Shown here: positions 6,101 to 55,600 of the stretch, piece by piece
How the letters are laid out: each line of letters opens with the position of its first letter
Numbering within the stretch: position 1 is the stretch's first letter
Source of the DNA: Paraspadella gotoi
Taxonomy: Eukaryota > Animalia > Chaetognatha
Length of the DNA: 64,000 nucleotides
Reading direction: 5' to 3'
NCBI GenBank assembly: GCA_051294375.1
Contig: CM119265.1
Span: 9,496,339-9,560,338, forward strand
Notes under the pieces: model-generated
The model's input: the letters and a program-made list of their open reading frames with translations, nothing else
Told to the model about the DNA's origin: nothing
Databases searched by the model: none
Made by a program: the position numbers and the translations under genes

Positions 6101-7340
6101 TTGACTTCTCCTTTCTATTCGCTCAAACCCGAAAACCCGGTAAAGTCACACAGAAGCGGGACTTTTCCATATATTTTATCGGATAAACTGTCTCTCCCTG
6201 TATTCGGATTGACATGCCAAAACCCGAAAACCCTCTGCCTCGATTTAGACCATAGAATCCCAATTTTCAACCGATTTTATTTGAATTTTTTTATTTTGTT
6301 TCAAATTTTCTTTTTCGTTTCGACTAAACTTGTTACGTTTCTCCCTTCCAATTCCCACCCCAACAAAACAAAAAAACAACATGAAACAAACGAAACAACA
6401 AAAACAAAGTCGATAGAGACTCAGACTGACGACTTTGTGGGACTCGGCGCCGGTCACTCCGCGGGTCTCGGAATGGGCGCCGGACACGGTGCCGGGTACG
6501 GCGCCGGTTTGACGGCGTCGTCGCACTTATTAGGAAGCGGCGCCGGGTCGACTTATTCCGACTCGGCTCATTTTTCGACGATGACTCATCATCATCCCGC
6601 CCACTCCTCGCAGCTCACGGTCATCGTCCCCGGCGAGAATGTCAAGCAGGTCTCTTTTTTTTACCGAAAGTGGGCGTGGTCGTCCCTTCCCCCCGCTGGT
6701 GACGGCAAACGTCGGGGGCTGACGTCAAAAATGAAAAAAAATGGCAAAGTTTGAGGAAGAAATGAGTCGGGTTGTGATCGTGGGAGTTTGTGAGAGTGAG
6801 AGCGGACGATTAGCTCAGAATTCTCTTTTTTTTGGTCTAAAGTTTTGGTGTGTTAAAGATTTTTTTTTTTTACCTCGTTTTTAATTATGGTGAAAGAAAA
6901 AATGCAAAAAAGCGATCAATATCCTAAATAGGTTTCAAGATTAGTCCATGCTTAAACGCGCGTATAAAATCTTTTTTAGCCCTAAAAACTCAAAAGACGC
7001 ATGATGCTAAAATTTCAAAACAGTTTATAGATGAGCTCATCCAATTTAACGATCGCTTTTTTCATTTGGTTTGAACTGATTCCCCTTTTTATTTTTTTAA
7101 ACGTTTCCCCTTTGTTCGTTTTGTCTCTTTTTCCCTTTTTCTCCCACTTCACCTTTCCTGTGTGTAACGATCATTCCATATCCGAATCACATTCTGCCTA
7201 AAATTGACCAAAAACCGTCACCAAATTCCTTTAAATTCTTCGTTACACAGACTCGTGATTTCCAATGTCAATTCAATACCGACGTCGTTGTCGAAAGAAT
7301 CTTTACCGACGTCGAAAAAAGGTTTTTGATGGAATCATAA
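163..7340 (+). CDS. Partial multi-exon gene encoding a low-complexity Ser/Thr/Gly/Asn-rich protein; exons 163-316, 828-929, 2249-2440, 3765-3848, 3930-4430, 5121-5246, 6425-6649, possible terminal exon 7251-7340
   Basis: Each segment is bounded by AG/GT and is open in frame; from 828 onward the lengths are multiples of 3 (102, 192, 84, 501, 126, 225 nt). No recognisable domain. The 5' end is outside the window, and it may be the 5' part of the WD40 gene at 15003-21051. Confidence 0.7.
1012..1715. other. Assembly gap (N run)
   Basis: Run of N. Confidence 1.
1951..2115. repeat. Polypyrimidine (TTTTCTTTC)n / (TTTC)n simple repeat
   Basis: Tandem 9-mer and 4-mer units in an intron. Confidence 0.9.
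3960..4315 (+). repeat. Coding 21-nt (7-aa) tandem repeat, consensus S-A-I-[TS]-Q-N-S
   Basis: Translation SSAITQNSSAITQNSSSISQNSLAISQNSTAVSQNISAITQNSLAISQNTLDMTQNSSAVNQNTSDISHN...; protein periodicity is kept while codons diverge. Confidence 0.85.
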
Positions 7341-8500
7341 TTTTTAAATTGAATATTTATTCGTTAATTTTCAAAAAGAGCGGTTTACAAATCGTTTTCA
7401 AATTAATTACCGATTCTTTCCAAAACCTCTTCTGGCCGCTATCCACATCATCCACACCGATCCACAACGATCAACGCTACTCACGAAAGCGACTTCCGGT
7501 CTCTGACGTCGCGCTTCGGCGCCACCCACTATTCCACGACGATCTTGGCGCCGCCGCATTCTGGTCACGTGACTCCGTCTGCGTCGCGGTCGGCGTCGCC
7601 GGCGACGCTTTCCGGCGTCGCTGCCACCCTTTTTAACTTCGCAGACGACCCACTCGCTCTCTGTTTCGTCTCTGTCTCAGTCGTAATCGATGACGTCGCT
7701 CTCCGTCCTCGTCTCACCACCGTCGTCGACTGCAGCTCACCACCTTCAGCATGATGAGGATGCGAGATCCTTCGCGGTCTCCCAGGGCGCGATAGTCTTC
7801 TTGTCGCTCGTGATGAAAACCTGAGAGAAGAGAGAGAGAGGAGTCGCCTTTTCATTACTTCGTTGCGTCATCTTTAAAATATATATACAATTATACATGA
7901 ATTAAACGAATGATGGCGTTTTCCATCCTATACGGGTTTTTTTCTTTTGTTAACGAGCTTGTGATTAGCAAAATTTACTTCAGTAATACTAATATCCTAT
8001 TATCAGCTTTTGATGTTCGAAGCGAAACCCTCTTTCACGCACAACCTGGAAAATGTCGACCATGGTGTTGAAGGTGCAGACGAGAGATCCGAGGACAACG
8101 CCAAAGGCGGATGGTCTTGTCTTTGCTTCCGGTCACGATGAATTCGTTGTCGGGAGAGATGGCGCTGCACCACACCTCGTCGTCATGGCCCTGTCATGAG
8201 AAGAGGAAAGGTTAAAAGTCCTTCATTAGATGAACACACCCATGGTCATGATGACAAAACCAAACTTACCTTGAGACTGGTGAGTAGACGTTCACTGTCC
8301 ATGTTCCAACTTTGACGGTGGCGTCGCCACTACCGCTGACAAGGTAGCGCCCATTTTCTGAGAGCATCAGACAAGTCACCGCGCGCTGGAGAATTAAGGA
8401 ATTGGGCTTTGACTAATATGTAGTTTTAATTGTGAAATTGCTTGGAAAATGTAATCCTGATTACAGAATTCGTTTTTATTACGATACCGGTATAACATAA

Positions 8501-8572
8501 GGGGATGTAGCTCAGTGGTAGAGCGCTCGCTTCGCATGTGAGAAGTCCAGGGTTCAATCCCCTGCATCTCCA
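8501..8572 (+). tRNA. tRNA-Ala(CGC), duplicate of 20144-20215
   Basis: GGGGATG...CATCTCCA full cloverleaf, G3:U70, anticodon arm CTCGC-TT-CGC-AT-GTGAG. Confidence 0.9.
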
Positions 8573-8802
8573 GTCTTCTTTATTTTAGTACTGTTATTAT
8601 CAAAGTTGACTTATTTCTTCTTAACTTAAAAAATGAACAGTTACTTTTACATTTTTACTGCGAACGAAGCTTGTTCTATGCGAGAGTTACGGAACATAAG
8701 TGATAAATAAGTACTGATTAATAGGTATTTTTTAGTTAAAGCTTCACTGAAACATATTTGTGGATCCGCGTAAATATTAAATAAATGTTGTTAAATTTTG
8801 TT

Positions 8803-9713
8803 GGAACGCATGTAGCTCAATGTAGAGCTCTTCCTTCGCGTTCAAGAAGTTTTGGTTCAATCCCCTTTATTTCCAGAGTCCCATTTTTTAGGTATGAGTA
8901 TATATATATAAAAGTAATTAAAAAGAATATTAAGTAATTGATGGTCAAAGTATTTTTCTTTATAACGACGCATCCATGAAATATGATATGATACGAATGA
9001 TACGATATGATATGATACCGTATAACATAAGGGATGTAGCTCAGTGGTAGAGCGCTCGCTTCGCATGTGAGAAGTCCAGGTTCAATCCCCTATCTCCAGT
9101 ATTCTTTATTTTAATATGTTATTATAAGAGTTACATTATTTTATTTTTAATTAAATACTTCTTAAAGATATTTTTAGTTGAAAACTTTAATGAAAGTGAT
9201 GTTGCTCAGTGGTAGAGCGTCGCTTCGCATACGAGAAGTCCAGGGTTCAATCCCCAGTATCTCCAATTCTCCACATTATCGGTTATAATTTTTTTAACAA
9301 AAACAATGAGGAAGTTTCCGTCAAACTATACCTAATATTTCGCATTGATTTATAATCATTAAATTATATAGAATAGTAAAATAAATGAGATGAATGGGGA
9401 TGTAGCTCAGTGAAGAGCGCTCGCTTTGCATGTGAGAGGTCCCGGGTTCGAACCCCTGCATCTCCACTTCTCCGTATTAAATCGTGGTAGTTAGCCCGTA
9501 AGCTTTTGTTTCATTAATAATATTATTAACATAATATGTTAAGTAATCGAAGAAACAAATTTTCAGGGTTTATATAGATATAATTATATGTACATAACAC
9601 CTGAAAGATTTTATGACCACGCGTCGACACATCCTTGCTGTCATAGGGGATATAGCTCAGTGGTAGACGCTCGCTTCCATGCGAGAAGTCCAGGTTCGAA
9701 TCCTGTATTTCCA
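8803..9713 (+). tRNA. Five further tRNA-Ala copies or pseudocopies of the left arm (~8805-8874, ~9031-9098, ~9196-9265, 9396-9466, ~9646-9713)
   Basis: One-to-one counterparts of the right-arm copies, most with 1-bp deletions. Confidence 0.75.
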
Positions 9714-11335
9714 CCAGTCTCCATGCTCTGAATTCTTTTATTTGGATTCTGACCTGATGCGCGACGAAGGAATCGTTGTTCGGCCTCGAAGCCGTGAAGC
9801 CGCTGAGTTGACGAAGGGACCGACCCGATCGATAATTCCAAAGCTTCAACTCTCCGCTCTTGGTGCCAGTCACCGCCTCTGCAAAATGATGCAATGTTTA
9901 GGTATAATTATTTTCATGCAGGCATCACCTCGGCAAAAGTGATAAAAATCGCTGCCTCTGCGATCAAATGGCAAACGAAAATGAATTATGAACCAACGAC
10001 TCACCCGTGTTGTTAAGCAACACGGTGCAGTCAACAGTGAGCGTCCATGTAGACCATTTTAGGCTCCGTGGTTCTGTTGATGTCCTTCTCCAGGAAAAAG
10101 GTATGTAGGTGGCTTCCCCGTCTTCGTATTGGTGTATCCCACGATGGCGCAATCCTGCTGGTAATGGTTGTGGTAATTGATCAAAATGAAACTGTCTTAT
10201 TATAAAGATTCTCCAGATCCTCATTTTAGAACTACCCTTTTCCATCACAATAACCTTTAACCAACCCTCGAACATGATTGGCCCATAGAAATCCAAATCC
10301 GAACCTGATTGGGTGAGAGAGCCAAAAAGTCGACCTTGTCGCAGAAGAGGTTCGCCGATCGACACTTCACTTCTCTCCACGCCTTCATTTGGATCAGATC
10401 CCAGACTACAACGCTGAAAAAAGGAAGCGTGATTTTATCAGAAATCAGTTATTGTTATTGCATATTGACTACATGAGTAAATTGAGTAAAGTCGGTGAGC
10501 TCAATTAAAATTGGTTATTAATTAGAGATTAGTATTCAAATTAGGAGTAGATTGGCTTTGTACAAACCATACTTCAGTATCGCGCTATTTCATAATTTAT
10601 TCAAATATTAATCAATTGATCGATTGAATGGTAAATTTACAGATAGATTCTCCAAATTTCCCCACTATTTCGCCAACCTGATCTCGTTGCCATAGCGATC
10701 GCAACGCGCGAATATCGCCGAGTTTCTGTCTTTAGTCAGGATGCATTTGGAGCAAAGTTCCACCTAAGAGGCGAAAATACAAACACAATGACACGATCGT
10801 GACGAGAATATGCTCGATGAGGGCCGCGTTACCTGGGACATGGTGAGGGATCGCCGGTTCGGAAGTTCCACACTTCGAGCGCCTGGAAGAGTTGACGGTC
10901 GGCTTCGGGAGCGGAGCCTAATTACAGAAGAAGGAGGTTGTTTAATTAATCGACGTAAAAATTTCCCATGTTTTGTTTCAAAGAAAGTTTATATTATCTA
11001 AACTTTTCTTTTTTTTCGTCCTCACCTCGTGCTGCCCCCGGACTCGTAGGCATCGGATATCGACGAGGCCGACCAACAATCGCCTCCGGATGCGAGATGC
11101 AGATTGGAACATCCTTCCGTATCAGATTGCATGCTGTGTACGATTTCGCCCGTCTGAGAAAAATTTCGAAATTAATTATTATACATATTAATCGACAATT
11201 AGTGACGGTTGAAAAACGGAAAACATCCAGTTTTGTCCCAGTAATGTTAAGCGTTCGAATCCTTTGAACGAGTTAGATGTAGAAACAAACTAACTGAAAG
11301 ATTATAAGTTAAAGAAAGGCACATATTCATCGTCA

Positions 11336-11576
11336 GGGGATGTAGCTCAGTGTAGAGCGCTTCCTTTACCTGCTGGCCGATTTAACCTAATGAGTAGGTA
11401 GTTGTCTTCTATCCTAGCATGGCCACTAAGGCACCTATCACTCGCTTATATGCAAAGTTAGCATGTTTAACCACTATCCACAAAGCTCCAAGATTAAATA
11501 AGTACTGTCGAAAAAGTGATATTAACCCAGCAGCTAGTAAAGGATGAGGTCCGGGGGTCGATTCGCCGCATCTCCA
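11336..11576 (+). ncRNA. Second copy of the tRNA-Ala-shelled RNA with ~170-nt insert
   Basis: Reverse complement of 17100-17342 apart from two 1-nt deletions and two substitutions; followed by an oligo-T run. Confidence 0.7.
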
Positions 11577-14500
11577 AGTATATGTTTTTTTTTTCTCACT
11601 ATTTTTTTAAATTCAACCATTGTTTATTACTTTGTCCAGCGCAAAAAACTTCTTAACAACATGCAATATGATTTATCTCACTATTTCCTGACCTCTATGT
11701 CCCAGACTTGTGGCGGCCAGTGTCTCGATCCGGCGATGACGTATTTGTCATCCGGCTGATGATCACGCTGACGATCTGAGAATTCTCCGCGATCTCCGTT
11801 CCTTCGTTGTAGATGGAGTAGCGACCGCTGGACCGGAAGTTGTAGGACTCCTCTCGTTGGAGACCGCCAACGCCGTGTTGGCTGCGGATGGTAATAAGAA
11901 TGTAAGCTGCTTAATTTCTCTAAATTCTCGAACGCTATTGTCAAATACTCACCCTCTTCGTTGTACTGATAATTGTAGGACTCTTGTTGATAACTCTCCA
12001 TGTTCTCTTCCCTGTAATCCACCGCCGATTGCGAAGTCTGAGAGCAGCGCAGGAAATAAAACAATAAAACAAAAGATTAGATTTTAAAAAAAAACAGCTT
12101 GCGTTCTGATCTCGCGCCTTCGAGCGTGATCGGGAAAAGTTTTTTGATTCGCTAAAAGACAAAGGCTCCTCTCATCACGGAAAAACGAAAAAGTCTTTTG
12201 TGTTATTTTTGTTTTCGTGACGTCAGAGCCGTGGAAAGATCTCGAGAGCGGGTAGGGGAAAATGTTTTAGAATTTTTAATTTAAGGGAGAGACGTTGAGA
12301 AATTAAAACGAACGAATTACGACGCGGGGAACGAATTTTAAGGGGATTGAGTCCAAGGCATGAAACTATCAGCGAAGCAAACAGATTTGAGAGCAACTAC
12401 GCTCGAAAAATGAGGGAGTTGAAAATCTCCCGAACTTTAATTCGCTACGAAAGCAACGATTAAAGGAGCCACTATATTGGCTACAACAAATACTATTACG
12501 CTAGAGCTATTACTACTTTTAACACAAAAGCGGATTCGTTAGGCCAATCGAAGGGCGAATCACAAAAAAAAAGAGCGGGTAGTTTCAATGATCTAAAAAT
12601 GAAGGTTTTTTCTTTTTGTCGAAACATGAGATCTGTTGATGAATATTTACTAATATTTAAATTTTTGTCTATAGTTTCCAATTTTAGTCGCATCTTTGCG
12701 CGAAGATCGGCGAAAACAATTTTTATTCACAAGTTTTCGATCTTCCAATCACCCGAAGCAATCATTTCCGATTCTGAAGTTGCGCTTAAATATTAAGACT
12801 AATGATTGAGGGAAATTTTCGTTTTGGTTTTTTAATTCCTGATTATGATTCTCTTTTGATCCGTGTATGTGTTGTACTATTCAATAATACTGCGATTTGC
12901 GCCGATACCTCGGACATCAATACAGCGATGCCGTGAGATGGCGCTTTTCGCCTCTACCTTCTGACGCTTGTGTCCTTTTCTCACGTGAGAGTAGAGAGGA
13001 GGAGACACCTTCTCCTCTTCCCTTCCTCCTCCCGCAATCGGCTTTTCGAATCCTTCGGCGACGCCGCCGCCAATTTTCGGCGTCAAAAACGACGCCGATT
13101 CGTAGTCGCCGGCGCCGAAGTCGTCGTAGTCGTCGCCGTCGAAACCGGCGTCGATTCGTTCTCGTCTCGTCACGTTTGTCGTCGTCGTCGTCATTCTCGT
13201 CGTCGCATCCTCGTCTTCGTCGCGGCGCTGGTCGACCACTCCTCCTGCCGCTTCTGCTGCAGCAGTCTCGATTCCTGTTGCAGCGTCTCGTGCTGCTGAG
13301 ATTCCGTCGGACTTCCTTCGCCGGAGACAAACGTCTCGCTCTCGCTGGCGTCGATGCGCGTCTGGCCGCCAGAAATTAGACCGTGGCGAAGGAAGATTCG
13401 GTCGTGCCGCCAGTGCGTCCGGCGGCAGAAGAAAAGCGTTGTCGTCGACGAGGTGATTGTAGCGATCCAACACTTCGTCGCAGGGAGACGTCGACGGAGG
13501 CGGAGAGAGGCGCGCCTCGGCGGCGTCGGAGTAAGCGTCGGCAGCGCGTCAGCGGCAGCGTCGCCGGACCCGAGAGATGAGCCAAGCGGGGGCGGTGAGG
13601 TGAGGGAGAGCGAGGTAAGGTTTGCGGAGGCGATGACGTCACCTTCACCATTGGATACGACGTCTAGTGAGTGGAATTTGAGATCGAGGAAGAAATGGAA
13701 ATCCGTTAAGACTAAAAAATAGTTAAGATTTAATAGTTAATAGAAATCGATCGAAAGGGGAAAGAGATATTTATATGTTTTCAAATTCGGATTAATTTTT
13801 TGATTCGAGCAATTGGATTTAAAATTATTTTCGTTTTAATTATTTAAACTTTAAAGCAGTGCTTTTATCATGAGATTGTTAGAGATTTTGGTTTTAGAGA
13901 ATGTAATCAGTGCGAAAATTATGTTTGTGGTTTTTTTTTTCGCGAATGCATAACATTTTTAATTGACGAAAGCGGACACTTGCAATACGACATCGACAAG
14001 AAACGATTTCGAAAAGATGACAAAGCGGAACGGACAAGGCGATGGTTGACAAAGCGGTTGATGACATCGACGAAGTCGACGACACAGAACGAGTTATAAA
14101 TTAAACTTACATTAGAACGAGACAAAAAAAACGAGACTAAAGCGTTTCGCGATTAAATTCGCGTTTCATTCCGAACTCGTTAATTACGAACGGAGGAATT
14201 AAATAAATAAATAACAATAAAATTATAAAATTAATTTAGTCTTTCCAGTTTCCTCCTTTCGCGTCTACGATCTCGCGAGAGAAAATAAATTGAATTTTGT
14301 GGATGGAATTTGAATCGACTACCGCGTCGAAGTCGTCGTTAACGGCCCCGCGATGACGCGGCTGCTGCAACTGCCGCAGCTTTCCTGCTGCTGCCGATGC
14401 TGCAGATTCTCCTCGAACTTTTCCTTGTCGAAGGAGAAGTGAGAAGCCAAGCGGAAGGGGATTCGGATCGGAAGTCATCGACGGCCGTGCGGAGGAGGGT

Positions 14501-14751: not shown

Positions 14752-15002
14752 ATTTTCGCACTGATTACATTCTCTAAAACCAAAATCTCTATCAATCTCA
14801 TGATAAAAGCACAGCTTTAAAGTTTAAATAATTAAAACAAATAATTTTAAATCCAATTGCTCCGAATCAAAAAATTAATCCGAATTTGAAAACATATAAA
14901 TATCTCTTCTTTCGATCGATTTCTATTAACTATTAAGTCTTAACTATTTTTTAATCTTAACGGATTTCCATTTCTTCCTCGATCTCAAATTCCACTCACT
15001 AG

Positions 15003-18000
15003 ACGTCGTATCCAATGGTGAAGGTGACGTCATCGCCTCCGCAAACCTTACCTCGCTCTCCCTCACCTCACCGCCCCCGCTTGGCTCATCTCTCCGGGTC
15101 CGGCGACGCTGCCGCTGACGCCGCTGCCGACGCTTACTCCGACGCCGCCGAGGCGCGCCTCTCCTCCGCCTCCGTCGACGTCTCCCTCGACGAAGTGTTG
15201 GATCGCTACAATCACCTCGTCGACGACAACGCTTTTCTTCTGCCGCCGGACGCACTCGGCGGCACGACCGAATCTTCCTTCGGCCACGGTCTAATTTCTG
15301 GCGGCCAGACGCGCATCGACGCCAGCGAGAGCGAGACGTTTGTCTCCGGCGAAGGAAGTCCGACGGAATCTCAGCAGCACGAGACGCTGCAACAGGAATC
15401 GAGACTGCTGCAGCAGAAGCGGCAGGAGGAGTGGTCGACCAGCGCCGCGACGAAGACGAGGATGACGACGACGAGAATGACGACGACGACGACAAACGTG
15501 ACGAGACGAGAACGAATCGACGCCGGTTTCGACGGCGACGACTACGACGACTTCGGCGCCGGCGACTACGAATCGGCGTCGTTTTTGACGCCGAAAATTG
15601 GCGGCGGCGTCGCCGAAGGATTCGAAAACGGCCGATTGCGGGAGGAGGAAGAGGAAGAGGAGAAGGTGTCTCCTCCTCTCTACTCTCACGTGAGAAAAGG
15701 ACACAAGCGTCAGAAGGTAGAGGCGAAAAGCGCCATCTCACGGCATCGCTGTATTGATGTCCGAGGTATCGGCGCAAATCGCAGTATTATTGAATAGTAC
15801 AACACATACACGGAATCAAAAGAGAATCATAATCAGGAATTAAAAAAACAAAACGAAAATTTCCCCTCAATCATTAGTCTTAATATTTAAGCGCAACTTC
15901 AGAATCGGAAATGATTGCTTCGGGTGATTGAAGATCGAAACTTGTGAATAAAAATTGTTTTCTCTGCGCAAAGATGGCGACTAAAATTGGAAACTATAGA
16001 CAAAATTTAAATATTAGTAAATATTCATCAACAGATCTCAGACAAAAAGAAAAATCCTTCATTTTTAGATCATTGAAACCTACCCGCTCTTTTTTTGTGA
16101 TTCGCCCTTCGATTGGCGCTAACGAATCCCGCTTTTGGTGTTAAAAGTAGTAATAGCTCTAGCGTAATAGTATTTGTTGTAGCCAATATAGTGGCTCCTT
16201 TAATCGTTGCTTTCGTAGCGAATTAAAGTTCGGGAGATTTTCAACTCCCTCCATTTTTCGAGCGTAGTTGCTCTCAAATCTGTTTGCTTCGCTGATAGTT
16301 TCATGCCTTGGACGTCAATCCCCTTAAAATTCGTTCCCCGCGTCGTAATTCGTTCGTTTTAATTTCTCAACGTCTCTCCCCTTAAATTAAAAATTCTAAA
16401 ACGTTTTCCCCCTACCCGCTCTCGAGATCTTTCCACGGCTCTGACGTCACGAAAACAAAAATAAACAAAAGACTATTTTCGTTTTTCCGTGACGAGAGGA
16501 GCCTTTTGTCTTTTAGCGAATCAAAAAAACTTTTCCCGATCAACGCTCGATGGCGCGAGATCAGAACGCAAGCTGTTTTTTTTTTTTTTAATCTAATCTT
16601 TTGTTTTATTGTTTTATTTCCTGCGCTGCTCTCAGACTTCGCAATCGGCGGTGGATTACAGGGAAGAGAACATGGAGAGTTATCAACAAGAGTCCTACAA
16701 TTATCAGTACAACGAAGAGGGTGAGTATTTGACAATAGCGTTCGAGAATTTAGAGAAATTAAGCAGCTTACATTCTTATTACCATCCCGCAGCCAACACG
16801 GCGTTGGCGGTCTCCAACGAAGAGGAGTCCTACAACTTCCGGTCCAGCGGTCGCTACTCCATCTACAACGAAGGAACGGAGATCGCGGAGAATTCTCAGA
16901 TCGTCAGCGTGATCATCACACCGGATGACAAATACGTCATCGCCGGATCGAGACACTGGCCGCCTCAAGTCTGGGACATAGAGGTCAGGAAATAGTGAGA
17001 TAAATCATATTGCATGTTGTTAAGAAGTTTTTTGCGCTGGACAAAGTAATAAACAATGGTTGAATTTAAAAAAATAGTGAGAAAAAAAAAACATATACTT
17101 GGAGATGCGGCGAATCGAACCCCGGACCTCATCCTTTACTAGCTGCTGGGTTAATATCACTTTTTCGACAGTACTTATTTAATCTTGGTGCTTTGTGGAT
17201 AGTGGTTAAACATGCTAACTTTGCATATAAGCGAGTGATAGGTGCCTTAGTGGCCATGCTAGGATAGAAGACAACTACCTACTCATTAGGTTAAATCGGC
17301 CAGCAGGGTAAAGGAAGCGCTCTACCACTGAGCTACATCCCCTGACGATGAATATGTGCCTTTCTTTAACTTATAATTCTTTCAGTTAGTTTGTTTCTAC
17401 ATCTAAACTCGTTCAAAGGATTCGAACGCTTAACATTACTGGGACAAAACTGGATGTTTTCCGTTTTTCAACCGTCACTAATTGTCGATTAATATGTATA
17501 ATAATTAATTTCGAAATTTTTCTCAGACGGGCGAAATCGTACACAGCATGCAATCTGATACGGAAGGATGTTCCAATCTGCATCTCGCATCCGGAGGACG
17601 ATTGTTGGTCGGCCTCGTCGATATCCTCGATGCCTACGAGTCCGGGGGCAGCACCGAAGGTGAGGACGCAAAAAAAAGAAAGTATATTAAACTTTCTTTG
17701 AAACAAAAAATGGGAAATTTTTACGTCGATTATTAAACAACCTCCTTCTTCCGGTAATTAGGCTCCGCCCCCGAAGCCGACCGTCAACTCTTCCAGCGGC
17801 TCGAAGTGTGGAACTTCCGAACCGGCGATCCCCTCACCATGTCCCAGGTAACGCGGCCCCTCATCGAGCATATTCTCCTCACGATCGTGATCATTGTAGT
17901 TTGTATTTTCGCCTCTTAGGTGGAACTTTGCTCCAAATGCATCCTGACTAAAGACAGAAACTCGGCGATATTCGCGCGTTGCGATCGCTATGGCAACGAG

Positions 18001-21000
18001 ATCAGGTTGGCGAAATAGTGGGGAAAATTTGGAGAATCTATCTGTAAATTTACCATTCAATCGATCAATTGATTAATATTTGAATAAATTATGAAATAGC
18101 GCGATACTGAAGTATGGTTTGTACAAAGCCAATCTACTACCTAATTTGAATACTAATCTCTAATTAATAACCAATTTTAATTGAGCTCAATTTACTCATT
18201 TACGTAGTCAATATGCAATAACAATAACTGATTTCTGATAAAATCACGCTTCCTTTTTTCAGCGTTGTAGTCTGGGATCTGATCCAAATGAAGGCGTGGA
18301 GAGAAGTGAAGTGTCGATCGGCGAACCTCTTCTGCGACAAGGTCGACTTTTTGGCTCTCTCACCCAATCAGGTTCGGATTTGGATTTCTATGGGCCAATC
18401 ATGTTCGAGGGTTGGTTAAAGGTTATTGTGATGGAAAAGGGTAGTTCTAAAATGAGGATCTGGAGAATCTTTATAATAAGACAGATTTCATTTTGATCAA
18501 TTACCACAACCATTACCAGCAGGATTGCGCCATCGTGGGATACACCAATACGAAGAACGGGGAAGCCACCTACATCACCTTTTTCCTGGAGAAGGACATC
18601 AACAGAACCACGGAGCCTAAAATGGTCTACATGGACGCTCACGTTGACTGCACCGTGTTGCTTAACAACACGGGTGAGTCGTTGGTTCATAATTCATTTT
18701 CGTTTGCCATTTGATCGCAGAGGCAGCGATTTTTATCACTTTGCCGAGGTGATGCCTGGCATGAAAATAATTATACCTAAACATTGCCATCATTTTGCAG
18801 AGGCGGTGACTGGCACCAAGAGCGGAGAGTTGAAGCTTTGGAATTATAGATCGGGTCGGTCCCTTCGTCAACTCAGCGGCTTCACGGCTTCGAGGCCGAA
18901 CAACGATTCCTTCGTCGCGCATCAGGTCAGAATCCAAAATAAAAGAATTCAGAGCATGGAGACTGGTGGAAATACAGGGATTCGAACCCTGGACTTCTCG
19001 CATGCGAAGCGAGCGCTCTACCACTGAGCTATATCCCCTTATGACCGCAAGGATGTGTCGACGCGTGGTCATAAAATCTTTCAGGGTGTTATGTACACAT
19101 AAATTATATCTATATAATACCCTGAAATATTTTGTTTCTTCGATTACTTAACATATTATGTTATAATAATTGTAAATGAAACAAAAGATTTACGGTCTAT
19201 CCGCCACGATTTAATACGGAGAAGTGGAGATGCAGGGGTTCGAACCCGGGACCTCTCACATGCAAAGCGAGCGCTCTTCCACTGAGCTACATCCCCATTC
19301 ATCTCCATTTATTTTACTATTCTATATAATTTAATGATTATAAATCAATGCGAAATGTTAGGTATAGTTTGACGAGAAACTTCCTCATTGTTTTTGTTAA
19401 AAAAATTATAACCGATAATGTGGAGAATTGGAGATACTGGGGATTGAACCCTGGACTTCTCGTATGCGAAGCGACCGCTCTACCACTGAGCAACATCACA
19501 CATCACATCATTAAAGTTTTCAACTAAAAATATCTTTTAAGAAGTATTTAATTAAAAATAAAATATGTAAACTCTTATAATAACAATATTAAAATAAAGT
19601 AGACTGGAGATGCAGGGGATTGAACCCTGGACTTCTCACATGCGAAGCGAGCGCTCTACCACTGAGCTACATCCCCTTATGTTATACGGTATCATATCAT
19701 ATCGTATCATATCGTATCATATCATATTTCATGGATGCGTCGTTATAAAAGAAAAATACTTTGACCATCAATTACTTAATATTCTTTTTAATTACTTTTA
19801 TATATATATATACTCATACCTAAAAAAATGGGACTCTGGAAATAAAGGGGATTGAACCCAAAACTTCTTGCACGCGAAGGAAGAGCTCTACCATTGAGCT
19901 ACATGCGTTCCAACAAAATTTAACAACATTTATTTAATATTTACGCGGATCCACAAATATGTTTCAGTGAAGCTTTTAACTAAAAAATACCTATTAATCA
20001 GTACTTATTTATCACTTATGTTCCGTAACTCTCGCATAGAACAAGCTTCGTTCGGCAGTAAAAATGTAAAAGTAACTGTTCATTTTTTAAGTTAAGAGAA
20101 AATAAGTCAACTTTGATAATAACAGTACTAAAATAAAGAAGACTGGAGATGCAGGGGATTGAACCCTGGACTTCTCACATGCGAAGCGAGCGCTCTACCA
20201 CTGAGCTACATCCCCTTATGTTATACGGTATCGTAATAAAAAACGAATTCTGTAATCAGGATTCACATTTTCCAAAGCAATTTCACAATTAAAACTACAT
20301 ATTAGTCAAAGCCCAAATTCCCTTAATTCTCCAGCGCGCGGTGACTTGTCTGATGCTCTCAGAAAATGGGCGCTACCTTGTCAGCGGTAGTGGCGACGCC
20401 ACCGTCAAAGTTTGGAACATGGACAGTGAACGTCTACTCACCAGTCTCAAGGTAAGTTTTGGTTGTCATCATGACCATGGGTGTGTTCATCTAATGAAGG
20501 ACCTTTTAACCTTTCCTCTTCTTCATGACAGGGCCATGACGACGAGGTGTGGTGCAGCGCCATCTCTCCCGACAACGAATTCATCGTGACCGGAAGCAAA
20601 GACAAGACCATCCGCCTTTGGCGTTTGTCCTCGGGATCTCTCGTCTGCACCTTCAACACCATGGTCGACATTTTCCAGGTTTGTGGCGTGAAAGAGGGTT
20701 TCGCTTCGAACATCAAAAGCTGATAATAGGATATTAGTATTACTGAAGTAAATTTTGCTAATCCCCACAAGCTCGTTAACAAAAGAAAAAAACCCGTATA
20801 GGATGGAAAACGGCCATCATTCGTTTAATTCATGTATAATTGTATATATATTTTAAAGATGACGCAACGAAGTAATGAAAAGGCGACTCCTCTCTCTCTT
20901 CTCTCAGGTTTTCATCACGAGCGACAAGAAGACTATCGTCGCCCTGGGAGACCGCGAAGGATCTCGCATCCTCATCATGCTGAAGGTGGTGATGCAGTCG

Positions 21001-21051
21001 ACGACGGTGGTGAGGACGAGGACGGAGAGCGACGTCATCGATTACGACTGA
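15003..21051 (+). CDS. WD40-repeat protein, 5' partial, with low-complexity N-terminal region; exons 15003-15716, 16636-16720, 16793-16983, 17527-17659, 17762-17847, 17920-18005, 18263-18371, 18523-18673, 18801-18925, 20335-20451, 20532-20678, 20908-21051
   Basis: GT-AG exons splice in frame. Clear WD repeats: AHQRAVTCLMLSENGRYLVSGSGDATVKVWN, GHDDEVWCSAISPDNEFIVTGSKDKTIRLWR, AVTGTKSGELKLWN, ITPDDKYVIAGSRHWPPQVWD. Stop after ...DVIDYD. Confidence 0.88.
17082..17091 (-). terminator. Pol III oligo-T terminator of the tRNA-like RNA
   Basis: T10 on the minus strand just after the discriminator base. Confidence 0.7.
17100..17342 (-). ncRNA. 243-nt tRNA-Ala-like Pol III gene in which the anticodon loop is replaced by an extended helix and a ~170-nt insert
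   Basis: 5' end GGGGATG TA GCTC AGTGGTA GAGC (A box, D arm); 3' end AGGTC CGGGG TTCGATT CGCCG CATCTCC A (B box, T arm with one G.G mismatch, acceptor). Closing helices TCCTTTAC/GTAAAGGA and CTGCTGG/CCAGCAG; T10 run 8 nt downstream; no internal TTTT. Confidence 0.75.
18967..19038 (-). tRNA. tRNA-Ala(CGC)
   Basis: GGGGATATAGCTCAGTGGTAGAGCGCTCGCTTCGCATGCGAGAAGTCCAGGGTTCGAATCCCTGTATTTCCA; intact cloverleaf. Confidence 0.9.
19225..19296 (-). tRNA. tRNA-Ala(TGC)
   Basis: Cloverleaf with anticodon loop TT-TGC-AT; one T-stem mismatch. Confidence 0.85.
19429..19500 (-). pseudogene. tRNA-Ala(CGC) pseudogene
   Basis: Acceptor 5' strand TGTGATG mispairs; anticodon-stem and T-stem mismatches. Confidence 0.8.
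19605..19676 (-). tRNA. tRNA-Ala(CGC)
   Basis: Intact cloverleaf, identical to 20144-20215. Confidence 0.92.
19837..19908 (-). pseudogene. Degenerate tRNA-Ala(CGC) pseudogene
   Basis: A/B-box remnants and CGC loop retained; acceptor stem destroyed. Confidence 0.75.
20144..20215 (-). tRNA. tRNA-Ala(CGC)
   Basis: Intact cloverleaf, G3:U70. Confidence 0.92.
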
Positions 21052-22152
21052 GACAGAGACGAAACAGAGAGCGAGTGGGTCGTCTGCGAAGTTAAAAAGG
21101 GGTGGCAGCGACGCCGAAAAATTCGGCCGTTGCAACAACACGGCTCTGGTCGGCAGCATAATATATATCAATTATACTCAGTACAATTATTACTATTTTT
21201 TTTTCGTGCTTAGTTTTTAAGTTACATACGCGAAAATATAACTGGATAATTCGGATATTGGACAGGCATCGCGGTATGAAATATTCAGCTACGATATTTT
21301 TATTTTTATTTCAGCTTTGCATGCTTTATATTTTTTTTTTCCTCTCGTGTGCGATCACTTTGTTCGTGCGTTCCATTCAATGTGCATTTTTATCTTGTAT
21401 GAAATAAAAGGATTATTTTGAAACAACTTATCGTAATCGTGCAGAATGGCGGGTTTGCTCTTTCACAAAGCTGGAACTGCGAGAAAATCTGATGTTGAAT
21501 CTTAACGAGGTTGTCAGCGAAACATCTGGTAGCTGGTACATGAAAAGATTTTCAGTAAAGACTAAACTAATCTACGCGTTTTTAGAAAAGTCGTAACTGC
21601 GTACAATAATTTTATATTTGAAATAAAAAGATCGCATTGAAATCAATATTAAGATGGATCAATAATAATCTGACAAAACTCGATTTTTTTTCGTTTTTTC
21701 GCAAGCGATAGAAGTATACTACGTCTATATTGCTACGACTCAAAAAATGTCGTATTATACTCCATTTAAAAAATTGGCCCTGGGACATAACGGGTGAAAG
21801 TATAATCAGTAAAGACTGGAGAGTGGGAGAGTGGGAGAATGGGAAAGTGGGAAGGCAGGACGGAGAGAGAGATAAGTGACAAAAATCTCAACCGAAGATG
21901 AAAATGTTTGATTCCGAAGAGTTCATTTTAAATAAATTGGATTGGATAAGGTGCGTTTCATAAAAGTGCGCTCGAGCGGGACAAGGCAACATGGTGACTG
22001 AGGTTTCATGTAAATAAAGTTAATAACTTTTGTTTGAGATAAAATCTCACTGTGGCCAAGTAGTTTTCCTTCGAGAGAATAAAAGAAAAAGGGAAGGGGG
22101 AAGGGGGAAGGAAAGGCACGGGAAAGTGTTCGACGCGGAGGCTACGCGCTTG

Positions 22153-34700: not shown

Positions 34701-37700
34701 GATCATTCCGCCCGTAAACTAGTTTCAGAAACGAGTCTTCTCTGTAACCCCCGTTAGCAGAGACCTATCCAAGTGTGGAGCTTGCAAAATCAAAACTGAC
34801 ACCAGATGGGGAAACCAGGGTTCTTGAGAAGACCGATACACGAGAGACAGATATAATTAAAGTTTTAAAACTCTCCGCCACCACTTTCTTAACTCGAGCT
34901 TCCGCACGCAACCATCGGAGGAAGAGTCAAAAAAAGCGAATATCCGGAAAAGGAAAGACGAGTAACCAAAGAAGCACGAAAATCAAATCGTTAAGACAAG
35001 GAAAACAGTTTTACTTTCTTGAAAATTGCAGTCAAAGCCAACTGTTAACGCTTTAACGATGTACACTTTGAAATAAGTTAAACTGCGGAGATTCTTTATT
35101 TAGAGCAAACTGCGGAAAAACTAAAATGAAAGAAACCCGAAATTAGCAAATCTTTCCACAACATATGTAAACCTTTACGATGAATTTGGATTGTCATGGA
35201 CGCCTTGGGTAGGACATTTACATTAAGGTAGGTCGGGTTAAAAGTCCTAATTTTCTACGGGCCAGAGAAAAAACTCGCTTCCGTCACCCGTTTAGCCGAT
35301 TGGACTCGAAACTGGCGATGATGTTACGCGCCAAAGTACTTATTCTCGGCCCCCCTGCTTCGGGCAAAACCGTGCTCGCCAACTTTCTGTCTGACGCCAC
35401 CGAGTCGATCGCCGCCAACTATCGCCCCACCAAGTGAGGAAGAAGAGGGAGGGGGAAGCATTTCGTTTAAGATATCACTGGTGCCACGCCTCAATTTATC
35501 TCTCCCGACAGAGGCGTCCGAATTCTGGAGTTTGAGAATGAGAAAATGAGGATCAAGGGTCGCAAGATCAACGCGGAAGTCGAGCTTTGGGACTGCGGCA
35601 GTGACTCCAGGGCAGAGATGTGTTGGCCGATGTTCGCGCAGAACATCAACGGCATCATCTTCGTGTTCAACAGCGGCGTGGAGTCCCACCCGAAATACCT
35701 GGAACGTGCCCACACACATTTTATCAGAAAGATGGCACTTTTGAGGGCAAGTTTTTGAGAGTTTATATGAATCCCGTTGTTTAAAATATATAAACTGAAA
35801 TTGCTTACAAACCAGGATTCCCAGTGCATAATTTTTTCGAACCGAAAATCGGAGGCGGGCCAAGGAAGCGAGGCATCGACGAGCTTGAACGTCAATCACC
35901 TACAACCGCCGCCGATAGCGACGGGAAGATTTGAAAGGAACGATATAGGTGGGAGAAACAAAAACATGGTGGTTATTGATGAAGGAAGTAGCAAAGTCAA
36001 AACCCATTTCCTATTTAGAACCGCTGCGATATCAACGAGATGTACCGGTTTCCATGAGGGAGATAACGTGCGTGGCAACCGACGTTACTCACGCTCCGGA
36101 GGAGCTGAGAGCCGCTTTTGAAAACTATCTTCACAGGTGATCATAGAATCAATATAGTTCATTGAACAAATTTAGAAATATTAAAATTTTCCCATTTTTA
36201 CTATTCCAGAATACTCGGCACGATGGCGGAACAAGCCGATAAGATGGAACAAAGCATTTTGTCGACGGATACCGACTACATTCGATGAATATTAAATAAA
36301 CTAAAACTATTTAAAGGCTGTTTTTATACAAAATACTCGACATCCTTTCTTAAAGAATATTCCCCTGAATACTTGTAAATAGTAGGTGTATAAAAACCTT
36401 TCTAGCAAACATTAATATCTTTAGTACTATAGTTTTAATACATAAAATACAATAAACATTCGATTACCTGAATAAACCTGTCTTTTTCGACAAGCGCTTC
36501 GCGTAATTTCGCCACTGCCTCGTCGCTATCGTTGGCCTAAAAATATGAAAAGTGAATTTTAAAATGTGACACAAAGACACATTCAAATTCAATAGCAAGA
36601 GCATACCAAAGGCACGAGTCGATTGGTCGCCTCGAGGGCGCGGTTGAGGCCGTCGACGGTGGTCTCCAACTCCTTCACTGTCGCCGCGTGAGTTTCGTCC
36701 TTTTCCTAAGGATGAAGATAACTTAGATGTAATTAAGCTGCAGCGCGGGAGGCTACAATCCACGACAGAAAAGAGAAACGCAAAGACTCCACAGATTAAG
36801 AACGTGAGACTGAAAATTGGTATGGGATAGTAGAAAAAATCTAAATAATCAACTAAGAAACTTTAAAAGTAACGGTCCCCTTGGACAAAAGGAAAGGAAT
36901 AGAAAGAGTTGAGTGGCTATGCTAAGGTTATATTCGACGCACCAAGAAAAGCCTGAAGTGATAAACTGATATAAGACGCGTCTGGAATAACATTTCGTGA
37001 AAAGTAAGAAAATCGCTAGCATTTTTTTTAAAAAATATCAGAGCGAAACATCAAAAAGAAATTTTCGCGAATATAAATTACTTCCTCTCCCAATTTTCTT
37101 TCTAGAAGCTGAAACCAACCATCAATTTATTTTGATTGCGGGGAGTTGGAAGTTGAAAAAATTCGTTGCCATGGCAACTCTCTCGTGCGTCGGGGTCGTT
37201 AGGTCGGGCCAACGAATCCGAAAGGGACGGAGTTTCGGGGAGGGGAAAAGCGTCGGCGCGTTGCAGGTCGTCCAAAAGAACCAGGTTCACGGGCAGAGAG
37301 GGAATGGCCGAAGAAAAAACCGGGGGAGGGGGATGAGGCGAGGGACGGGCGAGGGAGAAGCCGGAGAAGCGCTCGGGGACTGGGGAGAATGAGGAACCGA
37401 ATTCGACGAAGCGATTGGGGAAACTGGAGAGACTCAGAGCCGGAAGACGACAAGGGATCCTCGAAAAGAAAAAAGGTAAGATTGGCGGAGGGGGCGGGGC
37501 GAGAGAAGACGGAAGACGAGGGAGAGTAAAGGATGGGCAGTTCAGAAGGTGAGATTGAAAGGGGAGTGACTGAGAATGGAGAGGACGAAGAAAGAACCAC
37601 CATGCGGTCCTGTTGGTAGTTGGAGTTAACGTCAGCGGATATCATGTTAATCGCGGATTCAGATCGAGAAGTCTGGTCAGAGTAAGTCTACCATGAGTGG

Positions 37701-52600: not shown

Positions 52601-55600
52601 ATCGGCGTTTCCGTCGAGGTCAACGTAATCCGGGTCCTCGTCTTTCATATCGTTGGACCACATGTTAGACTTTTGCCGCTTGGCGCCTCTGCCGCCGCCG
52701 CCAACAATTTTTCCGCCTCTTCCGCCTCGTCCGGCGCGAGCGCTGATGACCTCGCGCCCGCCACGTCCTCCTCGGCGCCCACTTGAAGCGCGTTCGCCGC
52801 CGGCTCCGCGGCCAGCACTGCCGGCGTAGTATTCTCCGCCGTAATAATTTTCGGGTATATCTCGCTTCTTAGAGGAAGCTTTGGTGCCGTCGGCTTGGCG
52901 GTCATAACCGCCGACTGCGCCCCCGCCGCGGCGACTCAGGTCTCCAACGGCTGCCATCTTTTTGACACCGCCCTTTGCGCCGAGAGCGCCGCTTGTACCG
53001 CCGAGCTTATCGTCCAGCTCTTTCGTCTTATCCGGCGGTAACTCGGGAATCTGAGACATGAGGGGCGGAATGTGGGACGTCGATGGCGCCACCGAAGTTG
53101 ACGATGACGACGACGCGGATTTCTTGTCGCCGGAAGCGTCCTTGTCATCGCCGAAACGGCCGATCTTGGTTGGAAAACCGTCGGCAGTCGGTTTGTCGGC
53201 GCCGCTACCGCCAGTAGCGTCTACGTTTGTACCGCCCATTCCGCGCTTTAGAGGAGTCGGCTGATTGTAGTAGGCGTGGTCCTCTTGAATTCGCTGCGAG
53301 GATATCGGTGGCGGCGCGTTGAACTGTTGCCGATTTCCGACGCCTCCTTTGCGATTATCGCGAGGCATAACGGGAGGCGGAGGCTGGTTTTGACTTTTGT
53401 TCGACGAGTTCCTTTAGATAAAATTTATTTTTTTAAAACTTTTTTAATCTTATTTATAAAAAAAAAATTACAAGTAGACCCATTTTAGATTAAATCATTC
53501 ATCAAAATTTTTTTACAATTCATAACACGTCTTTTAATTTTTTTTTTTAGCTTAAAAGAAAGTTGATGATAAATAGGTATTAGGTACAAAATTAAAAAAA
53601 AAACTTGAAAAAATCATCATCATTTGATGAATTTTAGTTCTTGTATGAGATGTATTCTTAAAATATTATTGAATAAGTTCATCATTCTCATTTGCATATA
53701 TTAATAAATTATCATTAGAGTAATAATAATATATAATTCATAACTTTAGCCCCGCGCATTTATTTTCGCTAATAAAACGTAGGAATTTGAAAAAAAAAGA
53801 AATAACTTTTATCTATCTTTTACATGGTGACAATTTTACAAGCGCCGGTAAAAAAACTCTGTCATTTGCAAACCAGTGGTTATTTCATTGATTTTAAAAA
53901 TTAGTTGAGTAGAACATATTTTTATTTTCCAACTCACTATTTTTAAATTCAATTTTTTTTTTAACTTTTAGCACTTTTTTAAACAAAGTATTTATTAAAA
54001 TATTAACAATATTAATATCCTCAGGAAGCCCTTAAAAATATGAAGAGAATGATATACTTACAAAAGCTAACATAAAAAGTGAGCTGCCCAGCCTTGGTTC
54101 AATTAAGAGTGTCAAAAGTGAATTATTTAAATTTTAAATTTTTTTTTTAAATATATGACCTGTTTAAATTATTATAATATAAAATATTATTATTTATATA
54201 AGTATCATGAAAGAGCCTGAGAAAAAAAGATTTAAGATAGCCAATCACAATTTGATAAATATCATAAATTTACTCTCCAAATATTGATTTTTGAAAATAT
54301 GTATCGTTTTAGAGTATCCTAATTAAATTAAAGCTGGGCCGGTTAAATTTTATACTACAGTATTTGTAGGTACGTAATTTGCTTTAGATTTGAAAGGGCT
54401 TTCAGAAGATAATAAAATTTTTAATTCCTTTAGGGAATATTAATTCTATATCGGTCCGCCCCCATCGCCACGAAATGCCCTTTTGTTCGCGCTAGTCGAT
54501 AGGATCGCGCGTTATCAGAGTAAGAAAAAACGAACAAAATAAAATCGAAAGATGCAAAAAAGAAAAACCAGGGAATGCCGTCACTGTGCCGGCCTTGAAC
54601 AATGGAAGCCCGGCAAATCCCAAGCCGGCTCCCTCCCTCTCCGGGTATACGGAAGCCTCAAACGTCCCTAGAAGAACCCGGAGGGGCGCTCACGCGACGT
54701 CCCTGCAGTGGAAACGGAAGAAAGTCTGCGCGCCAGACCCAATCTCCGCGCCGGAAGAAGACGCCAAGATCCATTCCGCGGGCAAGGCGTCGAGACCACC
54801 ATAGCGGCGTCGACCCCGGGGCCGCAGAAACGTCCGCCTCCAGAAAAGTTCCTTGAGATGGAGGCGAACGCTGCGTCGAAGCTGGCGAAGAGGCGGCGCG
54901 GGAGCGCGAAAGGAAAATCGTGCGGGCGGCGCCAATTCCGAACGCAGAGAGAGCCAATTGCGCAGCGCCTGAACCGGGCAACGATCTGAGAGCGGCAGTT
55001 GAATCGAGACGGAACGCCGGACCCCTGTGTCCGCCCTGTCCGTATTCGAGAGCGTCGATGGAACAGACGAACGTGAACTGCCGCTAAGGAAAGATAGCCG
55101 CGTCGCAACGAAGAGAGACGATCTCTGGAGGCGACGAGCTGACGCTAAGCGACGAGAAGGAGCGAGCGTCGTAGAAGATCCCTCGGCGCTATCGGAAGTG
55201 GCGCCGAGTCGATGTATATGCGTAAAACCGAGGCCGCATTCCACGTGGGGAAATCGACGTGAGGGAGGGCGTCTCTCGAAAACTCCTTGAGAAGGCGCCA
55301 GACCAAAAGAAGCTCTCCAACCGGCGCTCCCGCCAGGGGGGGAGAGAAGCTGAGACGCCGATCTGTGCTGTACGAGAGGCCCTTCTCGCACGGAAGACCG
55401 AGATAACGTAGAACATCTCTAGAGAGGCTTGAGATCCTCGAACTCTCTATCCTGAAGGAAGTCGCAGAGGTAGCACCAAGCTCTGGCGAGGAGCTCTCTG
55501 GTAGAGCTCTCCAGCTGTCGACGATGACGGAGAAGTGGAGTCGTCGATGTCGGAGAGATTGTGGCACCGCCTAAAATCCTCCAGACGACGAGCCTGAAGC

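Follow-up and report, generated by a model that had tools for sequence, protein, structure and literature searches.

A split tRNA-Ala gene with a helix-closed insert in place of its anticodon loop: a candidate natural tRNA scaffold

Genomic Context and Copy Number

The window analyzed here, that is, the whole 64-kb stretch of DNA, contains a WD40-repeat gene and, antisense to it inside one of its introns, a tRNA-Ala gene that is split by a long insert (Table 1). This tRNA gene with its insert is referred to below as the element. The splice joint of the host intron lies at the same place in the RNA of a relative (run X10). A later, 1.4-kb intron of the same gene carries, also in antisense orientation, four called genes for tRNA-Ala along with two decayed ones (18967-20215).

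Table 1. Features of the split tRNA-Ala gene and its surroundings (window positions)
Feature	Position	Strand	Remarks
tRNA-Ala gene with cargo (element)	17342-17100	-	171 extra nt where the anticodon loop belongs
tRNA-Ala 5′-half	17313-17342	-	acceptor strand and D arm
A box	17335-17325	-	in the D arm
5′-strand of anticodon stem	17317-17313	-	CTTCC
Closing helix, 5′-strand	17300-17312	-	TTTAC (anticodon-stem extension), unpaired C 17307, CTGCTGG 17306-17300
Candidate TTAGG template	17286-17293	-	TAACCTAA; 5 templating and 3 aligning nt; putative function
Predicted long hairpin	17233-17284	-	15 bp, one bulge and one mismatch; MFE and centroid
Predicted 6-bp hairpin	17210-17228	-	loop AAAGUUA; MFE and centroid
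Alternative pairing P3	17155-17240	-	TATCACT 17240-17234 / AGTGATA 17161-17155; excludes the long hairpin
Closing helix, 3′-strand	17135-17149	-	CCAGCAG 17149-17143, 3-nt bulge CTA 17142-17140, GTAAA
tRNA-Ala 3′-half	17100-17134	-	GGATG, variable loop, T arm, acceptor strand with U70, discriminator A
B box	17121-17112	-	in the T arm
T10 run, predicted Pol III terminator	17082-17091	-	starts 8 nt past the tRNA 3′-end
Host intron of WD40-repeat gene	16984-17526	+	GT-AG, 543 nt; Pfam WD40; spliced joint in RNA run X9
Second copy of element	11336-11576	+	within the 6.3-kb inverted duplicate
6.3-kb inverted duplicate	7609-13919 vs. 14752-21120		adjoins an N gap

The inverted duplicate that holds the second copy sits within the WD40 gene, an upstream exon of which (~6581-6649) matches the start of sequence P0184 of a relative. 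The two arms differ by 73 substitutions and by gaps, mostly of 1 nt, of which 90 fall in the left copy (7609-13919) and 19 in the other; the left copy, rich in one-base deletions, is probably an assembly artefact. In DNA run X6, a single unbroken contig (17083-17666) shows zero differences from the window, covers the cargo at flank-like depth and has 31-mers common to no other copy. It therefore makes a real second variant, or a young element present in many copies, less likely, with the caveat that contigs can drop rare variants. The single-copy state that the earlier note on this DNA had wanted checked is contradicted by the assembly as it stands, probably through an artefact, and favoured by the X6 contig. 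Beyond the inverted duplicate, the longest exact match to the insert in the 64 kb is 13 nt.

Two other features of the window were recorded. A 6.3-kb stretch (53821-60101) whose inverted ends are nested (53821-53920/60002-60101 and 54436-54657/59600-59829) is possibly a decayed DNA transposon. An IFT22 gene (~35300-36200, plus strand) lies opposite a centrosomin-motif gene, between exon-like frames of that gene, and is probably nested in one of its introns.

Anatomy of the Split tRNA

The acceptor stem of the element forms 7 of 7 pairs with a predicted pair probability of about 1, including G3-U70, which is the identity mark for alanine. The first 27 nt are the same as those of the intact tRNA-Ala genes at 20215 and 19676, the D arm is identical to that of the working neighbours, and both A box and B box are intact. 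Compared with the neighbouring tRNA-Ala, three stem pairs are changed on both sides with pairing kept (29-41, 30-40, and 50-64), and two are broken (U28-U42 and G52-G62, the latter being one T-stem mismatch). The two-sided changes may mean that the source was another type of tRNA-Ala, from outside the window. T4 is absent within the element, as it is from only 77 of 637 composition-matched 171-nt windows.

Judged as a decoding tRNA-Ala, the element has the 7-bp acceptor stem with G3-U70 and both the D and T arms; a 7-nt anticodon loop with an alanine anticodon is absent, and 178 nt lie between the anticodon-stem strands instead. The RNA could not decode. ARAGORN makes no call on the split gene, and Rfam misses it at the gathering score. 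This tRNA-scaffold architecture is real and unusual.

Closing Helix and Predicted Fold of the Insert

The ends of the insert pair over 5 bp, a 1 × 3 loop (C opposite CUA), and 7 bp, so that 12 Watson-Crick pairs extend the anticodon stem coaxially. A 12-pair closing helix was reached in 1 of 200,000 shuffles of the insert, and its 7-bp part has a predicted pair probability of 0.96-0.99. A terminal inverted repeat would yield the same helix without selection. The insert together with the closing helix folds with a z of -2.98, and the core without the helix (z = -0.58) and the whole 251 nt (z = -0.85) fold no better than their shuffles.

The dominant predicted fold of the cargo is the 15-bp hairpin, which taken alone has a z of -1.86 (8 of 200 shuffles are equally good); the remainder is predicted to form the 6-bp hairpin and a loose 3′-stem. 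Rfam searches of the cargo at E up to 10 returned no match. Two short motifs occur three times each on the minus strand, UUAACC at 17294-17289, 17209-17204, and 17154-17149, and CUAUC at 17267-17263, 17241-17237, and 17202-17198; these triplicates could be repeated protein-binding sites. An ATG-started frame of 42 codons (17257-17129, minus strand) runs from the middle of the cargo to the 3′-anticodon strand of the tRNA and is probably due to chance.

Transcripts and Homologues

Nine of the 11 listed sequencing runs contain this DNA; all nine are of one organism, from three studies, and none of them is on record as RNA; run X9 was judged to be RNA because it contains GT-AG joints. Over 16500-18900, X9 has only two records. 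One, at depth 115, is the spliced host mRNA; the other, at depth 3.9, is a contig of 220 nt (17109-17328) that is unspliced, lies wholly within the element and spans both borders between tRNA and insert. No intron base in this region is covered outside that contig, and by hand count 24 of the 362 possible positions for a random 220-nt piece of those introns fall within the element. The contig is a weak hint of transcription of the element, being one contig from one study with neither strand nor ends, from a kind of library that catches unspliced precursors anyway. In this single low-depth contig set, neither a spliced tRNA joint nor a circular-intron joint is seen. RNA contigs of relatives B and C (runs X10 and X11) match the exons at ~80-95%; at 80% likeness none matches the element, but their coverage is of exons only and thus is no evidence of absence.

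Searches of metagenomes, viral contigs, phages and plasmids, and the RNA of relatives found no homologue of the element in other species that could bear out the cargo by covariation or conservation, a point against the scaffold reading discussed below. In metagenomes, the pattern was a split tRNA-Ala with 161-221 nt between its halves. The sole match (L001) was rejected as a homologue for being a tandem tRNA-Ala array: its positions 1-1512 hold animal-type tRNA-Ala genes and decayed copies in tandem with a period of ~147 nt. A scan of viral contigs with a template-anchored pattern gave 0 matches, and a distant blastn search with the insert against phages and plasmids also gave none.

Proposed Telomerase RNA Motifs in the Cargo

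The earlier note had read the insert as a telomerase RNA (TR) core with a closing helix, a short linker, a template for TTAGG, and a possible pseudoknot. All the motifs it named were found where it had placed them: the strands of the 7-bp helix, the 6-nt linker (17299-17294), the template 8-mer, which holds 1.6 complements of TTAGG and can be extended on neither side, the motifs GCATG (17259-17255), TAAG (17249-17246), and CTTA-TATGC (17231-17223), and both strands of P3, the second of which follows an A5 run. Its wider frame, a structured cargo inside a tRNA with a Pol III promoter, is supported.

The 8-mer is predicted to be unpaired (0.79-0.96) and stands 6 nt past the 7-bp helix. The earlier note had warned that it might arise by chance. 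Among 5000 dinucleotide shuffles of the 147-nt core, it appeared anywhere in 2.1% and within the first 30 nt in 0.22%, only modestly beyond chance. A template for any of four animal telomere motifs appeared in 3.9% of shuffles, and over the whole window the TTAGG 8-mer occurs at chance level. For TTAGGG and TTAGGC, the best template matches in the cargo are 5 nt each.

The P2/P3 pseudoknot fared worse. In a nested-ensemble folding model, in which pseudoknots themselves have no place, the probabilities of P2 and P3 are about 0 because the favoured 15-bp hairpin uses the same bases, and forcing P3 costs 5.6 and P2 11 kcal/mol. Of 3000 shuffles, 178 contain seven Watson-Crick pairs that end near the 3′-end of the core, as P3 does. 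The P3 strand can be enclosed by a crossing stem of 12 bp (-9.4 kcal/mol), which is better than the stem proposed earlier; such a crossing-stem pseudoknot was matched by 9 of 3000 shuffles, with thresholds tuned to the observed values. However, an untuned search selects a different pseudoknot, whose weaker stem is equalled in 233 of 400 shuffles and so shows no excess; its total energy is equalled in 13 of 400, a rank that is due to the long hairpin. The doubt that the earlier note had raised about a U-rich triplex strand is upheld, as the sequence 5′ of the P3 strand, CACTAAGGCACC, is not U-rich.

Rfam searches for TR families at E up to 10 gave no match, which is a weak test given how fast such RNAs diverge. 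There is no telomeric array in the 64-kb window.

The Telomere Premise

The template would be useful only with TTAGG telomeres, a motif tied to arthropods in the part of the literature consulted (PMC10767889), and nematodes are described there as mostly TTAGGC bearers, basal Xiphinema included (PMC10760449; bioRxiv 10.64898/2025.12.19.695367). Affinities of the genome were judged mainly from IFT22, for which named matches reach 42-44%. In a tree of 19 rows, consisting of three relatives and 16 named sequences and built without the split IFT22 gene of the window itself, the relatives lie on a long branch outside six rhabditid nematodes. An arthropod placement is the least favoured (log-likelihood 6.97 lower, p-AU 0.12) against a nematode or a lophotrochozoan one (p-AU 0.35 each), and no placement is rejected. 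A quick 120-row tree had shown a loose grouping of the relatives with rhabditid nematodes (support 84), with which the 19-row tree disagreed. That the DNA is from an animal is shown by PRRC2, IFT22, the centrosomin-motif protein, and the WD40 gene; the best matches for PRRC2 are molluscs, ticks, and a centipede at 24-31%, and the top Atlas cluster is mostly nematode. As judged by the IFT22 tree, the premise of TTAGG telomeres is not favoured.

Discussion

What is established at this locus is the anatomy of the split tRNA-Ala, a closing helix that is not random, a low copy number, and the presence in RNA of one unspliced contig that stays within the element. For the interpretation, we give about even chances to a natural tRNA-scaffolded Pol III RNA, in which a tRNA-Ala carries a structured cargo as its helix-closed insert of ~170 nt. 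Pol III would start from the A and B boxes of the tRNA itself, cross the insert and end at the T10 run; RNase P and RNase Z would trim the tRNA-like ends, to which CCA would then be added. The canonical metazoan splice signal, a C-G proximal pair with a 3-nt bulge, is missing at 37/38, and this paired site would escape the tRNA splicing endonuclease, so that the insert would be retained. The product would be an RNA of ~243 nt, a tRNA body bearing a structured domain on its extended anticodon stem, in which the tRNA part would provide the promoter, the signal for processing, and a scaffold that protects the cargo. Instead of decoding codons, the cargo would bind a protein partner, of which TERT is the best that we can name, and alanylation through G3-U70 may be possible.

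Against this stand two other accounts of the insert, each of which we regard as unlikely though of some weight. By one of them, the insert might be a tRNA-type intron of ~160-171 nt, cut out by the splicing endonuclease now or formerly, perhaps as a circle, from a tRNA that is crippled or displaced. This account keeps its place because the helix does show the metazoan splice elements, displaced by 5 bp: a C-G proximal pair (17306-17143) with the 3-nt 3′-side bulge CTA lies five pairs further out than normal, and the C-U-G-C-U-G of the closing helix resembles loop positions 32-37. The endonuclease measures from the tRNA body. At the true 37/38 position, where PMC6614914 places the metazoan signal, U-U would stand in for the proximal pair and pairing removes the bulge, and splicing at the canonical site would leave an alanine body with UAC as its anticodon and with C37. 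In addition, the six aligned neighbouring tRNA-Ala genes and pseudogenes have no intron and, a weak point, the sole RNA contig is unspliced with no joint seen. As in intron-containing metazoan tRNAs and tricRNAs (PMC6614914), extra sequence sits at the anticodon loop behind a closing helix that shows a C-G pair and a bulge of 3 nt. Unlike in these, the insert lies in an alanine tRNA, its signature is 5 bp too far out, its canonical site is paired, and no sensible tRNA-Ala would result from splicing.

By the other account, equally doubtful in our estimate, a non-autonomous mobile element that ends in terminal inverted repeats landed in the anticodon loop long ago and left a functionless pseudogene that is transcribed. 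Inverted repeats at the insert ends would by themselves produce the helix, the core is no more structured than chance, two stem pairs of the tRNA are broken, and decayed tRNA-Ala copies lie nearby. Yet of the marks of a MITE only the inverted ends are present; neither a clean target-site duplication nor many copies are found (64-kb window and run X6), the duplicate being the only further copy in the 64 kb and the X6 contig being unbroken. Removal of the insert leaves no alanine anticodon loop, and the acceptor stem, the D arm, the A box and the B box are all intact, with pair-keeping changes in the stems. A derivation of the insert from two fused tandem tRNAs whose inner halves had decayed was rejected, as the cargo matches tRNA halves and spacers over no more than 13 nt and the helix would go unexplained. 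Far less probable than the intron and mobile-element accounts is the fusion of a tRNA with a Ro60-binding RNA akin to Y RNAs, after the manner of bacterial Y RNAs with a tRNA-like module. The vertebrate Ro site, as given in PMC4726728, combines a 7-bp helix, a bulged C and, opposite, a bulge of 3 nt, all of which the closing helix shows; GGCCGA at its end also resembles the GGUCCGA and GNCGAA of PMC4201824. However, GGCCGA lacks the U of the motif, and motif and bulges are on opposite sides of the helix. The cargo has neither a correctly ordered GUG-CAC upper stem nor UUAUC (CUAUC occurs three times instead), at 164 nt it is far longer than 100 ± 20 nt, and Rfam gives no match at E up to 10.

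Among known RNAs, two kinds compare with the scaffold reading. In engineered tRNA scaffolds, a cargo replaces the anticodon loop and is shown on an extended anticodon stem. Bacterial tmRNA has a tRNA-like module with an alanine-type acceptor, from which a long helix leads to a second module. The element resembles the engineered scaffolds (listed in PMC13755472) in both respects and differs in being natural and in residing in an animal nuclear genome. With tmRNA and the YrlA Y RNAs (PMC4201824), it shares a long helix that links a tRNA-like part with another functional one and, with tmRNA, the alanine-type acceptor, but unlike these bacterial RNAs it has a complete tRNA D arm, and its Ro motif is imperfect. 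The layout of several pseudoknots as in tmRNA was not found in the cargo. The Rfam tmRNA match is weak and confined to the T arm and acceptor (E 0.18); tmRNA has an internal tag reading frame, and in the element one open frame of 49 codons crosses the closing helix; the cargo itself has no Rfam match. A title-level literature search that covered few subscription journals found neither a natural animal tRNA scaffold nor a tRNA-embedded TR.

A TR is a special case of the scaffold reading and the best named role for the cargo, though an improbable one. In detail, the closing helix would be P1 and the template boundary, UAACCUAA would template TTAGG, and the pseudoknot would form when bound by protein; this, too, we hold to be unlikely. 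The template with its position, the crossing stem, and the low copy number of the cargo fit such a role, and insect TRs are small RNAs with neither CR4/5 nor H/ACA, which Pol III can make and in which extra hairpins can lie between template and pseudoknot. In the consulted parts of the reports on Hymenoptera (PMC9841428), Lepidoptera (PMC11892584), and Coleoptera (PMC13023368), they likewise have a helix, a short linker, and a TTAGG-type template, with hairpins past the template and Pol III transcription in Hymenoptera; in sfTR, P1.1 lies 4 nt from the template (PMC11892584). In contrast, those same parts describe insect TRs with upstream promoters all of the type-3/snRNA kind, no tRNA body, and a conserved pseudoknot, in which Hymenoptera keep invariant U residues; extra hairpins after the template are allowed in Hymenoptera (PMC9841428). 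The element has the tRNA as its promoter and a doubtful pseudoknot, and the U-rich strand 5′ of P3, kept in Hymenoptera TRs, is absent. Because the U-rich strand is lacking and the match to the telomere putative, the cargo should not be classed as a TR. The literature covered also includes PMC12133305, PMC12921731, PMC8480181, PMC12084805, and PMC13233069.

A displaced long intron would test how rigid the ruler of tRNA splicing is. There is a slight chance that the animal makes its telomerase RNA inside a tRNA-Ala, with a type-2 promoter, maturation by RNase P and RNase Z, and the extended anticodon stem as P1; if so, this would be a new route of TR biogenesis, and a split tRNA with a template would provide a search pattern for animal lineages that lack an identified TR. 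If the natural scaffold is real, it would be an animal non-coding RNA class that tRNA finders and Rfam overlook and, since both miss such a form, other missing RNAs could hide there.
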